Source: a plasmid
Direction: 5' to 3' (one strand)
Assembly (NCBI RefSeq): GCF_058153355.1
Contig: NZ_JBLWLY010000002.1
Length of the DNA stretch: 64,000 nt
Below are positions 13,757 through 17,880 of the stretch, piece after piece. The position numbers were made by a program, and so were the translations under genes. The notes under the pieces are model-generated. The model was given only the letters and a program-made list of their open reading frames with translations. It was not told the DNA's origin and did no database searches. How positions within the stretch are numbered: position 1 is the stretch's first letter; every line of letters begins with the position of its first letter.

Positions 13757-13801
13757 TTTATCCTTGCCCCGCTGAATGAGGAAACGCTGTTCCGGGGGAT
13801 T

Positions 13802-14029
13802 ATGCTGAACGTCTTCCGTTCACGGTACTGCTGGACGATGTGGCTGGGTGCGCTGATAACGTCGTTGTTGTTCGTCGCCGCGCACAGCCAGTATCAGAAC
13901 CTGCTGACCCTGGCAGAACTGTTCCTGGTGGGGGTGATTACATCAGCGGCCAGGATCAGAAGTGGTGGCCTGCTGCTGCCGGTATTGCTGCATATGGAAG
14001 CAACCGCGCTGGGTTTACTGTTTGGTTGA
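13802..14029 (+). pseudogene. CPBP/Abi-family intramembrane protease C-terminal fragment
   Basis: 75-aa ORF; family call from memory of the CPBP C-terminal region; a second copy of the same fragment is at 17049..17196. Confidence 0.4.
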
Positions 14030-14121
14030 CAGTTATATTTTTATTAAACATTGCGCGTTAAAGCCTGGTGTGTTTTTTTAGTGGATGTTATATTTAAATA
14101 TAACTTTTATGGAGGTGAAGA

Positions 14122-14379
14122 ATGCATACCACCCGACTGAAGAAGGTTGGCGGCTCAGTTATGCTGACCGTCCCACCGGCACTGCTGAACGCGCTGTCTC
14201 TGGGTACAGATAATGAAGTTGGCATGGTCATTGATAATGGCCGGCTGATTGTTGAGCCGCACAGACGCCAGCAATATTCACTGGCTGAGCTACTGGCACA
14301 GTGTGATCCGAATGCTGAAATATCAGCTGAAGAACGAGAATGGCTGGATGCACCGGCGACTGGTCAGGAGGAAATCTGA
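14122..14379 (+). CDS. pemI: PemI antitoxin, copy 1
   Basis: 85 aa MHTTRLKKVGGSVMLTVPPALL..., PemI/MazE-like. Confidence 0.85.
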   Translation: MHTTRLKKVGGSVMLTVPPALLNALSLGTDNEVGMVIDNGRLIVEPHRRQQYSLAELLAQCDPNAEISAEEREWLDAPATGQEEI

Positions 14380-14380
14380 C

Positions 14381-14713
14381 GTGGAAAGAGGGGAAATCTG
14401 GCTTGTCTCGCTTGATCCTACCGCAGGTCATGAGCAGCAGGGAACGCGGCCGGTGCTGATTGTCACACCGGCGGCCTTTAATCGCGTGACCCGTCTGCCT
14501 GTTGTTGTGCCCGTAACCAGCGGAGGCAATTTTGCCCGCACTGCCGGCTTTGCGGTGTCGTTGGATGGTGTTGGCATACGTACCACAGGTGTTGTGCGTT
14601 GCGATCAACCCCGGACAATTGATATGAAAGCCCGGGGCGGAAAACGACTCGAACGGGTTCCGGAGGCTATCATGAACGAAGTTCTGGGCCGCCTGTCCAC
14701 TATTCTGACTTGA
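14381..14713 (+). CDS. pemK: PemK toxin, copy 1 (GTG start)
   Basis: ERGEIWLVSLDPTAGHEQQGTRPVLIV..., PemK/MazF family; ORF 14249..14713 in track. Confidence 0.85.
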   Translation: MERGEIWLVSLDPTAGHEQQGTRPVLIVTPAAFNRVTRLPVVVPVTSGGNFARTAGFAVSLDGVGIRTTGVVRCDQPRTIDMKARGGKRLERVPEAIMNEVLGRLSTILT

Positions 14714-14978
14714 ACATGGGGGGGTGCCCCTATTAAGTTGTCAAGCATGTTATGACCCCTGCGGGGTATAAAAAGTCCCGTCGCGCATCATGGCGAACAG
14801 AACGTCGCAGCGTCGTCTCGCCAGGGCGATAAGCGCCTGATTGTGTCGTTTTCCCTGACTCATTTTGCGGGTGTAGTAAGCCCTGGAGAGCGGATCCCTG
14901 AGCGCGGCGAAGGCCGACTGTCAACGCCACGATTTTTAACCGTTATTTGCCATTTTCATGCCCGCTAAGATACTTTCG

Positions 14979-15779
14979 TTACTGATGCTGTCCGCTTTCC
15001 ACCATTTCATCATCACTGATTGGCGTTGTGTTTTTGGTCAGCACTCCTGCTTTACGTTTCTCTTTTAACCGGTAACTCTCTCCTTTGATATTCAGCGTGG
15101 TTGAGTGATGTAGCAGCCGGTCCAGGATCGCTGTGGCCAGCACATGATCCCCGAACATTTCTCCCCAGTCTGCGAACCCTTTGTTTGACGTCAGTATGAT
15201 GCTCGCTTTTTCATATCGACGGTTCAGTAGCCGGAAGAACAGGCTGGCTTCCTCTCTGTTCATCGGCAGATAGCCTATTTCATCCAGGATCAACACCCGG
15301 GCATAACTCAGTTGCTGTAGCTGACGCTCCAGCCGGTTTTCCTGTTTCGCTTTCATCAGTGTCGCGATCAGTCTGTCCAGTGGCATAAACAGTACCCGAT
15401 GTCCCGCATCCACCGCTTTCACGCCAAGAGCTATGGCCAGATGCGTTTTTCCTACACCCGGAGGTCCCAGCAGGATCACGTTTTCGCTGCGCTCCACGAA
15501 CGCCAGACCTGCCAGTTCCCGGACAACCTTACGGTCGATGCCCGGCTGGAAGGTAAAGTCGAACTGCTCCAGCGTTTTGACCCACGGCAGACGAGCCTGC
15601 TTCAGCCTGGACTCCATACCGCGCTGATGCCTGCCGTTCCATTCCTGCTGTAGCGCCATGCTCAGGAACTCCCGGTAGTTCAGCTCTTTTTTAGCTGCCT
15701 GTTCCAGCAGGCTTTCAACGTGATAACTCAGATGCTCCATTTTCAGGCGACTCAGCAGGACTTCCAGCTCATGCATCAC
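14979..15779 (-). CDS. istB: IS21 IstB ATP-binding helper
   Basis: 266 aa with Walker [10 protein letters not shown]. Confidence 0.85.
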
Positions 15780-16948
15780 AACAGCTCCTCATAGGCACTC
15801 AGTGGTCGATGTTCCACCTGACTGACCTGCTGCCAGAGCGGGGCGTGATGCTCCGGCACTGTCTGCCAGCCAGACGATGCCGAACAGAGGCGATGTGAGG
15901 CCACCAGTTTCTCATTACTGTAGATCCGCAACTCGTCATCCAGCGATATTCGTATCGATACCGGCTGACCACACAGCGCTTCGGGAACGCTGTAACGATT
16001 ACCACCAACCTCGATATAGCTGTCCCAGGACACATGGCGGATGTCGAAGTAACTGGTATCGAAGTCCGTATCCGGTAACGGCTGCAGATGTTCCTGCTCC
16101 AGCGCGAAGCGCTGTTCCGGCGTTTCTTTGAACTGGCGAAGTTCCCGTTTGTCAGCCACATCGGCTATCCATTGCTCCAGTTGTTGATTAACATGAGTGA
16201 AGCTGTCGAACCTGCGGTACCGGACGAAGAAGTTCTCCTTGAGGTATTTCACCATCCGCTCAACCTTACCTTTTGTTCTGGCCCTGCGTGGACGGCATGC
16301 CCGTGGCAGGAAGTTATAGTGGTCGGCCAGCAACAGGAATCCGGAGTTGAACACGGCTTTCCCGTTGTTATTCTTCAGCACCGCAGCCTTCTGGTTATCA
16401 ACCAGCACCGTTTTCACACAACCACCGAAGTAGCGGAAGGCGCGAACCAGTGATTCGTAGGTATGCTCAGCATCCTGTTTTGGTGCGGCGAAGACATGGA
16501 AGCGGCGGGAGAACCCCAGCGTATTAACCGCAAAGTTAACTTTGCACCGTTGCCCGGCAACCTCCACCTCAACTTCGCCCCAGTCGTGCTGGAGCTGGTA
16601 TCCAGGCTGAGTTTCGAAGCAAACTGTTCTTTTTGACGGACGCATTTTACGTTTGGGCTGGATGTAGTAACGCAGCATGGAACGTCCGCCCGTATAGCCC
16701 ATTGCCTTAATCTCCGCGAAGATAACCTCGCTATTCCAGACATTCTCTGCCAGGCGCATGTCGATGTAATCCATAAACGGTTTCAGCTTAACCATTTTGT
16801 GGCGGGTCTTTCTGGCTGGCGGTTCAGGGTATTTGAGGTAGCGTCTGACCGTCCGTTCAGAGCAACCAATCTGAGTCGCAATATCGACAATGTACGCGCC
16901 CTGCTGGCGCATTTGCTTTATCATGTAAAAGTCCTCTCTGCTCAGCAT
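15776..16948 (-). CDS. istA: IS21 IstA transposase
   Basis: 390 aa with N-terminal HTH and integrase-like core. Confidence 0.85.
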
Positions 16949-17048
16949 GTTGATGTCCTTTCTGGTGTGGGAACCTTAAGGAAACAACATGTTGGGTGGA
17001 GCGGACAATCCAAATGGCGAATTACCGTCTTATATCACTGGCGCTGAC

Positions 17049-17196
17049 ACACAGCCAGTATCAGAACCTGCTGACACTGGCAGAACTGTTCCTGGTGGGG
17101 GTGATTACATCAGCGGCCAGGATCAGAAGTGGTGGCCTGCTGCTGCCGGTATTGCTGCATATGGAAGCAACCACGCTGGGTTTACTGTTTGGTTGA
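17049..17196 (+). pseudogene. CPBP-family protease C-terminal fragment, copy 2, cut by IS21 end
   Basis: same sequence as 13877..14029 beginning exactly at the IS21 terminus. Confidence 0.4.
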
Positions 17197-17288
17197 AAGT
17201 TATATTTTTATTAAACATTGAGCGTTAAAGCCTGGTGTGTTTTTTTAGTGGATGTTATATTTAAATATAACTTTTATGGAGGTGAAGA

Positions 17289-17546
17289 ATGCATACCACC
17301 CGACTGAAGAAGGTTGGTGGCTCTGTTATGCTGACCGTCCCACCGGCACTGCTGAATGCGCTGTCTCTGGGTACAGATAATGAAGTTGGCATAGTCATTG
17401 ATAATGGCCGGCTGATTGTTGAGCCGCACAGACGCCCGCAATATTCACTGGCTGAGCTACTGGCACAGTGTGATCCGAATGCTGAAATATCAGCTAAAGA
17501 ACGAGAATGGCTGGATGCACCGGCGACTGGTCAGGAGGAAATCTGA
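17289..17546 (+). CDS. pemI: PemI antitoxin, copy 2
   Basis: 85 aa; three substitutions relative to copy 1. Confidence 0.85.
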   Translation: MHTTRLKKVGGSVMLTVPPALLNALSLGTDNEVGIVIDNGRLIVEPHRRPQYSLAELLAQCDPNAEISAKEREWLDAPATGQEEI

Positions 17547-17547
17547 C

Positions 17548-17880
17548 ATGGAAAGAGGGGAAATCTGGCTTGTCTCGCTTGATCCTACCGCAGGTCATGA
17601 GCAGCAGGGAACGCGGCCGGTGCTGATTGTCACACCGGCGGCCTTTAATCGCGTGACCCGCCTGCCTGTTGTTGTGCCCGTAACCAGCGGAGGCAATTTT
17701 GCCCGCACTGCCGGCTTTGCGGTGTCGTTGGATGGTGTTGGCATACGTACCACAGGTGTTGTGCGTTGCGATCAACCCCGGACAATTGATATGAAAGCCC
17801 GGGGCGGAAAACGACTCGAACGGGTTCCAGAGACTATCATGAACGAAGTTCTTGGCCGTCTGTCCACTATTCTAACTTGA
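17548..17880 (+). CDS. pemK: PemK toxin, copy 2 (ATG start)
   Basis: MERGEIWLVSLDPTAG...; ORF 17416..17880 in track. Confidence 0.85.
   Translation: MERGEIWLVSLDPTAGHEQQGTRPVLIVTPAAFNRVTRLPVVVPVTSGGNFARTAGFAVSLDGVGIRTTGVVRCDQPRTIDMKARGGKRLERVPETIMNEVLGRLSTILT

Follow-up and report, generated by a model that had tools for sequence, protein, structure and literature searches.

Two diverged pemIK modules on either side of an IS21 copy in an IncFII-type Escherichia coli plasmid

An IncFII-type plasmid of E. coli was found to carry the pemIK toxin-antitoxin module twice, with a complete IS21 between the two copies, so that the overall layout is A-B-IS-B-C. By their substitutions, the two copies are assigned to different allele lineages. 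I consider it likely that this plasmid is a hybrid of two related IncF plasmids, each with pemIK, which fused at IS21 and were afterwards resolved to one replicon. All positions given below are those of the window, that is, the whole 64-kb stretch of plasmid DNA that was analysed.

The repeated block and its surroundings

The two blocks form an ungapped direct repeat of 839 bp (13883-14721 and 17050-17888), in which a base-by-base comparison at offset 3167 and a self-BLAST search gave 17 substitutions (98.0% identity, or more exactly 97.97%). Within each copy, the 3′ end of a CPBP/Rce1-like gene comes first, then 92 bp of intergenic DNA that include the pem palindrome, and then pemI (85 codons) and pemK (110 codons). 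The substitutions between the copies are spread evenly along the repeat, and the base-by-base comparison gave no sign of gene conversion. A preliminary description of this DNA had noticed the fragment-pemI-pemK block on both sides of a complete IS21 as well as a difference in the pemK start codon. Both observations hold: the repeat lies around IS21 at 14919-17049, and pemK starts with GTG at 14381 in copy 1 and with ATG at 17548 in copy 2. The alignment that it had suggested, 13877..14720 with 17049..17885, was run, and these ranges were correct within a few bases, with no indels beside the 17 mismatches. The CPBP-like fragment had been called the same before each copy. It is the CPBP 3′ end in both cases, but the two fragments are unequal, with 273 bp (13757-14029) before copy 1 and 147 bp (17050-17196) before copy 2. 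Similarly, of the two copies said to flank IS21, copy 2 abuts it, whereas copy 1 is parted from it by a 200-bp ISEc20 remnant.

The outer contexts are in the usual backbone order, with repA on the left and DUF4238, parM, and the leading region on the right, as in the comparison sequences L005 and L006. Copy 1 continues unbroken into repA, and copy 2 continues unbroken into >8 kb of ordinary backbone (a DUF4238 remnant, parMR, and the leading region). The DUF4238 gene in the window has a 544-bp internal deletion. The gene order is that of the IncF block repA...CPBP-pemI-pemK-(DUF4238 or GmrSD)-parMR, which is found, for example, in E. coli C5 plasmid A (CP010123.1) and pUMNK88_K88 (NC_017639.1). 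The CPBP 3′ end, pemI, and pemK have 98-99% nucleotide identity with this block, and copy 2 keeps the DUF4238-parM continuation. Unlike in these plasmids, both CPBP genes are truncated, DUF4238 is deleted internally, and the block is present twice. There were no Rfam matches in the 13.4-18.9 kb region.

Mobile elements at the block boundaries

The complete IS21 (14919..17049, minus strand, 2131 bp) has its IRR at 14919 and its IRL at 17049. Its termini are TGTCAAC...GCTGACA (TGTCAACGCC... / ...GGCGCTGACA). Between the inverted repeats, which have TG...CA ends, lie the tandem genes istA (HTH and DDE/rve) and istB (AAA+ helper). The istA gene (15776-16948, minus strand, 390 aa) is intact and encodes the rve and Mu-transpos_C_2 domains, while istB (14979-15779, minus strand, 265/266 aa) encodes an IstB_IS21 domain (E 1.2e-90). 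Annotated IS21 copies from plasmids of E. coli and Shigella match the element at 98.6% identity, and the identity of the IS is not in doubt. It is the only IS21 copy that the self-BLAST search found in the window. Like the known IS21, it has the TGTCA ends and intact istA and istB genes, and it differs by the missing 4-5-bp duplication. The search for IS21 target duplications that the preliminary description had proposed found none at this copy, where a simple insertion would have one of 4-8 bp; the adjoining letters are CCGAC and CACAG. Other copies of this IS have a duplication of 5 bp (TCGGG, in L001) or 4 bp (CTAC, in L003). One flank is an ISEc20 fragment, and the other is codon ~170 of the CPBP gene. 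Since there is no target duplication, the two flanks would stem from different insertion sites, within ISEc20 and CPBP respectively, and this IS21 copy is read as a recombination junction, not as a simple insertion. IS21, which encodes the IstA transposase/cointegrase and the IstB helper ATPase, reportedly brings about replicon fusion, as in R68.45.

The stretch between pemK-1 and IS21 is an end fragment of the IS110-family element ISEc20 (~14719..14918, minus strand, ~200 bp). It is 100% identical to an annotated ISEc20 at 7450-7649 of the EIEC pINV plasmid NZ_CP119442.1 (L003). The remnant sits at the GGGG terminus of the Tn3-type inverted repeat that follows pemK, and its other end is cut by IS21. 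The empty insertion site is seen in AP045071.1 (L007) and in copy 2. ISEc20 is placed like the IS110/IS1111-family elements IS4321 and IS5075, in that its site coincides with the outer GGGG end of a 38-bp inverted repeat of the Tn3 type; unlike these elements, only a 200-bp end of it is left here. IS4321 and IS5075 are said to insert into the terminal inverted repeats of Tn3/Tn21-family transposons.

In copy 2, pemK-2 is directly followed by a relic 38-bp Tn3-family terminal inverted repeat (17885..17922, plus strand, gamma-delta-like), and the 839-bp repeat has its right edge at the GGGG outer terminus of this relic. The relic is also conserved behind the pemK genes of L002, L005, L006, and L007. 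Presumably it resembles the Tn1000 inverted repeat, which is offered as a lead only. Besides the Tn3-type relic, the stretch just downstream of pemK contains a 25-nt motif that occurs three times in the window. The idea that CPBP-pemIK is cargo inside a Tn3-type element was rejected; the relics beside pemIK have their outer ends towards pemIK.

On the left, the copy-1 block is bounded by a miniature element of the Tn3-family type (13472..13756, 285 bp), which cuts the CPBP gene at 13756/13757. An inverted-repeat search and a pattern search delimited it by 38-bp terminal inverted repeats (GGGGGCCGCTTGGAATTCGG... / GGGGTCCGCTTGGAATTCGG...), and the pattern search for this repeat gave two matches where none were expected. 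No ORF of transposase size is present in 13472-13756, and no 5-bp target duplication was found at the element (ATTGA versus TTTAT). The junction between the miniature element and CPBP is also present in the pINV plasmid NZ_CP119442.1 and in AP045071.1.

The full CPBP gene is 654 bp in length and lies at 1994-2647 of L005. Fragment 1 (13757..14029, plus strand; Pfam PF02517, E 1.6e-16) aligns with L005 2374-2647 and is without the first ~380 bp of the gene. Fragment 2 (17050..17196, plus strand; PF02517, E 0.001, model positions 56-88) aligns with L005 2501-2647 and is cut by the IRL end of IS21. A CPBP/Rce1-like protease is a full-length multi-pass protein of ~217 aa with EExxxR, FxxxH, and HxxxN/D motifs, and the C-terminal 90 and 48 codons are what is left of it here; both CPBP ORFs are to be regarded as gene remnants. 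Fragment 1 is likely to be a pseudogene because its sole in-frame start (ATG at 13802) comes after the EExxxR motif.

Allele lineages and the proposed origin

Eight of the 17 differences between the copies, including the GTG start of pemK, group copy 1 with AP045071.1 and with the contig L008 against every other allele examined. AP045071.1 carries the copy-1 allele, GTG included, as a single copy, and differs from copy 1 at five sites. Copy 2 differs from CP057779.1 at five sites, from CP010123.1 at nine sites, and from copy 1 at 17 sites. At the 3′ end of pemK, copy 2 agrees with the DUF4238-linked plasmids at three sites.

A second assembly, GCA_043012465.1, to which L008 belongs, implies the same arrangement: L008 stops 1 bp short of IS21, and another contig (L009) begins 79 bp within IS21 and runs across the IS21-CPBP junction into copy 2. 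A cluster of 14 SNPs separates the repA of the window from that of L008, showing that the backbone recombines in this lineage. The three junctions had no match among 72,556 PLSDB plasmids, and the whole 4.9-kb region had no match covering at least 80% of it among 5,426 complete E. coli genomes. These searches did not yield a parental plasmid with IS21 at either site, which counts against the origin proposed below.

Under the proposed origin, parent 1, from an AP045071.1/pINV-like lineage, would have had repA, RelE-HTH, the Tn3-type miniature element, the truncated CPBP gene, and pemIK-1; an ISEc20 would have stood directly behind pemK, itself interrupted by IS21. Parent 2 would have had CPBP, pemIK-2, DUF4238, parMR, and the leading region, with the IS21 junction within CPBP. 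The two may have been joined by homologous exchange between IS21 copies at two non-allelic sites or by the IS21 cointegrate (replicon-fusion) pathway, and either route would give a cointegrate. Against this, the window holds a single repA, a single parM, and a single tra region, so that the cointegrate stage is inferred and was not itself seen. One further exchange, at another place in the backbone that the plasmids had in common, would have produced a single hybrid plasmid in which the stretch from one IS21 site to the other is kept in duplicate. Also against the proposed origin, the reciprocal products, namely the CPBP 5′ part next to IS21 and the remaining ISEc20, are absent from the 64-kb window. 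The preliminary description had also read this as not a fresh duplication, with the look of recombination between two pemIK replicons at or near IS21. Three independent lines support that view, namely the missing target duplication, the different allele lineages, and the different truncating elements.

It seems rather unlikely that a short segment was imported without fusion of whole plasmids, with IS21 and the adjacent 'CPBP-pemIK-2 (or pemIK-1-ISEc20') arriving by IS21 transposition or by recombination with a taken-up fragment. Such an import would fit the single backbone set in the window and the way in which the copy-2 block starts precisely where IS21 ends. However, neither copy resembles a small insert with two novel ends, because both run unbroken into backbone, copy 2 for >8 kb and copy 1 into repA. 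Moreover, a simple transposition of IS21 should be marked by a target duplication, which is missing here.

Somewhat less likely again is an assembly chimera, in which two co-resident plasmids, each with IS21 beside its own pemIK, were merged through the shared IS21. The assembly is the sole source for the linkage of the two flanks across IS21. The window is rich in repeated IS copies, and GCA_043012465.1, the one further assembly that has both alleles, breaks exactly at IS21, leaving the linkage unproven there. On the other hand, a 2.1-kb IS is easy for long reads to span. The window has one coherent backbone set in the usual order (repA, pemIK, parM, leading region, and tra), while the duplicate backbone implied by a two-plasmid cell is absent. 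The IS21 flanks would be without a target duplication in either case.

The least probable alternative, and a disfavoured one, is a tandem duplication in one plasmid lineage (for example, by unequal sister exchange) followed by 2% drift in place: the A-B-IS-B-C layout with the backbone in its usual order to the left and to the right and the evenly scattered differences without a sign of gene conversion would suit it, but the copies are not mutual closest relatives (17 sites apart, and five from outside alleles such as CP057779.1 of an unrelated plasmid), copy 1 has eight derived sites in common with the single-copy allele of AP045071.1, and the CPBP fragments end at different mobile elements, the copy-1 junction being found also in pINV plasmids without pemIK.

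All components of the locus are known, the mechanism is textbook, and the result is an ordinary kind of plasmid mosaic. As a hybrid joined at IS21, it would be a clear and datable example of IS21 and other mobile elements stitching related IncF/pINV-type plasmids together. It would also show a route by which an addiction module ends up duplicated. Beyond plasmid bookkeeping, the region matters little. For annotation, the value lies in treating the CPBP ORFs as remnants, the IS21 copy as a recombination junction, and the plasmid as one with at least four post-segregational killing loci. These are the two pemIK copies, a RelE/HTH pair, and hok/sok.

The two toxin-antitoxin pairs

The module found here is PemI/PemK of R100, which R1 carries under the name Kis/Kid (ParD), and it belongs to the type II toxin-antitoxin systems of the MazEF superfamily. 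In this system, the antitoxin neutralises an endoribonuclease toxin, the module stabilises its plasmid, and the promoter upstream of pemI is autoregulated through an operator palindrome. In copy 1, the pem promoter/operator region (14030..14121, plus strand; palindrome 14031-14051 / 14085-14105) is followed by pemI-1 (14122..14379, plus strand, 85 aa), which encodes a rare P50Q variant, and by pemK-1 (14381..14713, plus strand, 110 aa), which has the GTG start and encodes T96A. In copy 2, the promoter/operator region (17197..17288, plus strand; palindrome 17196-17218 / 17252-17274) is followed by pemI-2 (17289..17546, plus strand, 85 aa), with the private variants M35I and E70K in a protein comparison, and by pemK-2 (17548..17880, plus strand, 110 aa), which has an ATG start and encodes the widespread PemK. 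The toxin matches Pfam PF02452 over the full model (E 1.8e-29 for PemK-1), as a toxin of the PemK/MazF fold does. PemI matches PF04014 (E 1.1e-6) and is encoded upstream in the same orientation, as a MazE/AbrB-type antitoxin. In both copies, the TGA stop codon of pemI is followed by one base and then by the pemK start, forming a tight bicistronic operon.

I found no disabling mutation in either toxin copy; PemK-2 is identical to Kid (PDB 1M1F) at 110/110 residues and PemK-1 at 109/110, and by sequence both toxin-antitoxin pairs are intact. The dN/dS ratio is 0.35 for pemI and 0.07 for pemK. The exact PemI-1 protein occurs in only two public contigs and the exact PemI-2 protein in one other public contig (L009), while the exact PemK-2 protein occurs in at least 1000. 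A simple consensus scan, which is uninformative here, gave no sigma-70 site upstream of either pemI, and the published promoter fragment was relied on instead. A 115-bp pemIK-F promoter fragment is active (PMC7326226), and its primer sites are present in both copies. Since a predicted promoter, the operator palindrome, the ribosome-binding site, and the ORFs are kept in both operons, each should serve as an ordinary module of the Kis/Kid type for post-segregational killing. Because the toxins are the same but for one residue, each antitoxin would probably neutralise the toxin of the other pair as well, and the second copy would then be redundant.

As in the R100/R1 system, the antitoxin gene comes first with a one-base gap to the toxin gene, a palindrome lies upstream, and the IncFII repA adjoins as usual. 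Unlike in that system, one replicon has two copies instead of one, and the copies carry the GTG start with PemK T96A and PemI P50Q, or PemI M35I and E70K. A literature search found no report of a double pemIK on one replicon; two copies of vagCD are present on pEC302/04 (PMC4707298). It would be a long shot, judged as a single set of ideas, that the GTG-start PemK-T96A/PemI-P50Q lineage is a weakened, antitoxin-biased module, retained not as a neutral remnant but as an 'anti-addiction' shield from killing by competing pemIK plasmids, or that the two pairs are diverging into partly insulated toxin-antitoxin pairs, and, separately, that the region 3′ of pemK is a recurrent exchange site swapping defence-type genes.

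The gene after pemK varies, being GmrSD in pUMNK88 and DUF4238 in others. With PADLOC, intact DUF4238 and CPBP homologues had no defence-system match, and the GmrSD homologue matched the NsnA and PD-T4-2_A models.

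The repeated pemIK block and its edges

Base-by-base comparison (offset 3167 bp) and self-BLAST of the window revealed an ungapped direct repeat of 839 bp, 13883-14721 versus 17050-17888, with 17 substitutions and no indels between copy 1 and copy 2 (97.97% identity). Each copy opens with the 3′ end of a gene of the CPBP/Rce1-like type (PF02517), followed by 92 bp of intergenic DNA that include a palindrome, and then by pemI (85 codons, PF04014; 14122-14379 and 17289-17546) and pemK (110 codons, PF02452; 14381-14713 and 17548-17880). A complete IS21 of 2131 bp with intact istA and istB lies between them on the minus strand (14919-17049). 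Thus, the preliminary description was correct in placing a CPBP-pemI-pemK block on both sides of a complete IS21 and in assigning pemK a GTG start codon at 14381 and an ATG at 17548. However, the CPBP fragments which it called the same are 273 bp (13757-14029) and 147 bp (17050-17196) in length and are cut by different mobile elements. The blocks do flank IS21, but copy 1 does not abut it; in between are 200 bp from one end of ISEc20, an element of the IS110 family (approximately 14719-14918), which match the copy annotated in the EIEC pINV plasmid NZ_CP119442.1 at 100% identity.

The left edge of the repeat (13883/17050) exists solely because IS21 cuts the copy-2 CPBP gene; in copy 1 the gene extends 126 bp further. 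The right edge (14721/17888) exists solely because ISEc20 is inserted in copy 1, at the exact GGGG outer terminus of a Tn3-type repeat that all plasmids examined carry 3′ of pemK. Copy 2 and AP045071.1 show this site uninterrupted. Insertion at such a terminus recalls IS4321 and IS5075, which target the terminal repeats of the Tn21 family. ISEc20 lies next to a G run at all three junctions seen (14715-14725 in the window; 7440-7460 and 8895-8915 in the pINV locus).

To the left of copy 1 lie the genes for CopA RNA (10866-10956), IncFII repA (11029-11898), and a RelE/ParE-type (Gp49) toxin with an HTH antitoxin (12873-13471). Directly 3′ of the antitoxin stop codon is a miniature element of 285 bp (13472-13756). 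Its terminal repeats are 38 bp long and of the Tn3 type; it encodes no transposase and is not flanked by a 5-bp target duplication. The element and its junction with the CPBP fragment are shared with AP045071.1 and with the pINV plasmid (99.3% identity). To the right of copy 2, the relic terminal repeat (17885-17922) is followed by a DUF4238 gene, parM/parR, and the F leading region. The DUF4238 gene (17950-18830) is a pseudogene with an internal deletion of 544 bp between 18187 and 18188, as compared with CP010123.1 (3639-4182 of that locus).

The relic is a gamma-delta-like 38-bp repeat of the Tn3 family, which always lies 4-5 bp past the pemK stop codon with its outer end toward pemK (also at 3963-4105 in the related locus L002, and at 3253-3290 and 3998-4035 in L006). 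The gene beyond it varies, being GmrSD/DUF262 in pUMNK88 and CP057779.1 and DUF4238 in the others; in L002, the GmrSD gene sits between two mutually facing outer ends. A 25-nt motif, GCGGTTTTRGTGYCCKAWATCGWAC, overlaps the inner end of this repeat. It occurs three times in the window (none expected): within the miniature element (13562-13586, plus strand), 33 bp past pemK-2 (17913-17937, minus strand), and beyond the DUF4238 remnant (18722-18746, plus strand). It was found at equivalent places in all 10 related loci read.

Allele lineages and the IS21 junction

The 17 differences were polarised against the alleles of six other plasmids. At eight sites, including the GTG start codon, PemI P50Q, and PemK T96A, copy 1 agrees with AP045071.1 and with L008, a contig of GCA_043012465.1, against all other alleles. 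Four sites, all within pemI, are private to copy 2. At three sites in the 3′ end of pemK, copy 2 groups with the DUF4238-linked alleles L004, L005, and L006, and copy 1 with the GmrSD-linked L001 and L002. Therefore, the 2% divergence represents allelic variation between plasmids rather than drift after a local duplication. AP045071.1 carries the copy-1 allele with the same neighbours on its left (the HTH antitoxin, the miniature element, and truncated CPBP) and an empty ISEc20 site, and has only one pemIK within the 20 kb read.

The termini of IS21 are intact, and no target duplication was found at the window copy (CCGAC on one side, CACAG on the other). The same IS has a 5-bp duplication, TCGGG, in L001 and a 4-bp duplication, CTAC, in the pINV plasmid. 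Since the flanks are the interior of ISEc20 and the CPBP gene without duplication, they derive from two different insertion sites, which makes the IS21 of the window a junction rather than a simple insertion. The missing duplication, the allele lineages, and the different truncating elements support the earlier proposal that two pemIK-carrying replicons recombined at or near IS21.

Most probably, two related IncF plasmids that shared one backbone order were joined at IS21. This may have happened by homologous exchange between IS21 copies that sat at non-allelic sites, one in ISEc20 downstream of pemIK-1 and the other in CPBP upstream of pemIK-2. Alternatively, the cointegrate pathway of IS21 itself, whose replicon fusion is known from R68.45, may have joined them. 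A later exchange in the shared backbone would have resolved the cointegrate into one hybrid plasmid that retains the stretch between the two IS21 sites twice. I infer both the cointegrate stage and any choice between the routes; the reciprocal junctions are absent from the 64-kb window.

Import of a short segment only is disfavoured, since on its outer side each copy passes unbroken into ordinary backbone that extends for kilobases. An assembly chimera formed via the shared IS21 is unlikely, as the window holds a single coherent backbone. The allele relationships contradict a duplication in place with later divergence, and a fresh duplication was rightly rejected at the outset: copy 1 differs from AP045071.1 and copy 2 from CP057779.1 at five positions each, and from each other at 17. 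All components are known elements with 98-100% identity, and plasmid recombination of this kind is textbook IS-mediated mosaicism.

Occurrence in other assemblies

When the exact proteins were looked up in public contigs, PemI-1 and PemK-1 were limited to two or three of them and PemI-2 to one. Both alleles occur, on separate contigs, in one assembly, GCA_043012465.1. L008 has repA, pemIK-1, and an ISEc20 fragment; it reaches as far as position 14917 of the window and shows no difference from it in the copy-1 region. L009 begins 79 bp inside IS21 and continues through the truncated CPBP and pemIK-2 for 8.5 kb at 99.95% identity. These contigs, which both break at IS21, imply that another, non-identical isolate has the same arrangement, but do not establish that the two sides of IS21 are linked. 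The three junctions had no match among 72,556 PLSDB plasmids, and none of the complete E. coli genomes in RefSeq contained the whole structure. Over the 3.5 kb shared with L008, 14 of the 16 differences fall within 150 bp of repA (11394-11544), which looks like a recombination patch, or backbone exchange, in this lineage.

Integrity of the modules and other plasmid features

PemK-2 matches the Kid toxin (PDB 1M1F) at 110 of 110 residues and PemK-1 at 109 of 110. Between the copies, pemI has three synonymous and three non-synonymous changes (dN/dS 0.35), and pemK has five synonymous changes, one non-synonymous change, and the start codon (dN/dS 0.07). Both copies retain the palindrome, the AGGAGG ribosome-binding site ahead of pemK, and the entire 115-bp fragment reported as a strong promoter (PMC7326226). 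A simple consensus promoter scan detected no site in either copy. As far as can be read from the sequence, both modules are intact. A substitution at 14030, private to copy 1 and L008 and absent from AP045071.1, turns the hexamer TTGAAA into a perfect TTGACA exactly where the CPBP gene stops, upstream of pemI-1.

In Kis/Kid and PemIK, a stable endoribonuclease toxin is checked by a labile antitoxin which also represses the operon. Each module should serve as a post-segregational killing system. The toxins differ at a single residue, T96, which is not known to be catalytic or RNA-binding; cross-neutralisation of the two pairs, and hence redundancy, is therefore expected. Further killing or maintenance loci are hok/sok (51396-51565; Rfam sok, 92.9 bits) and the Gp49-HTH pair.

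Elsewhere, a 2.18-kb inverted repeat (99.7% identity; 4475-6656 and 27941-30123) contains a group II intron with a reverse transcriptase/maturase, both copies lying inside IS66-family elements (Rfam RF01999, RF00029; TIGR04416). The traJ 5′ UTR and FinP are present (55568-56345), and an ORF at 55611-56345 fuses the TraJ N terminus (~35 residues) to residues 51-242 of TraK. This suggests a deletion from the 3′ part of traJ through traY, traA, traL, and traE, and hence a plasmid unable to transfer itself. One 351-codon ORF (50235-51287) matches both PsiB (residues 2-128) and PsiA (116-350), normally encoded by two separate genes, and may be a fusion or have lost a stop codon. Three 22-nt direct repeats (TGCCTCGTTTTGAGTTTGTGTT and variants) upstream of parM (20245-20350) may form a parC-like centromere. 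A fimbrial usher (PefC/AfrB family) with a chaperone and an AraC-family (HilC/HilD-like) regulator (32491-36255 and 42031-42915) are virulence-type plasmid cargo.
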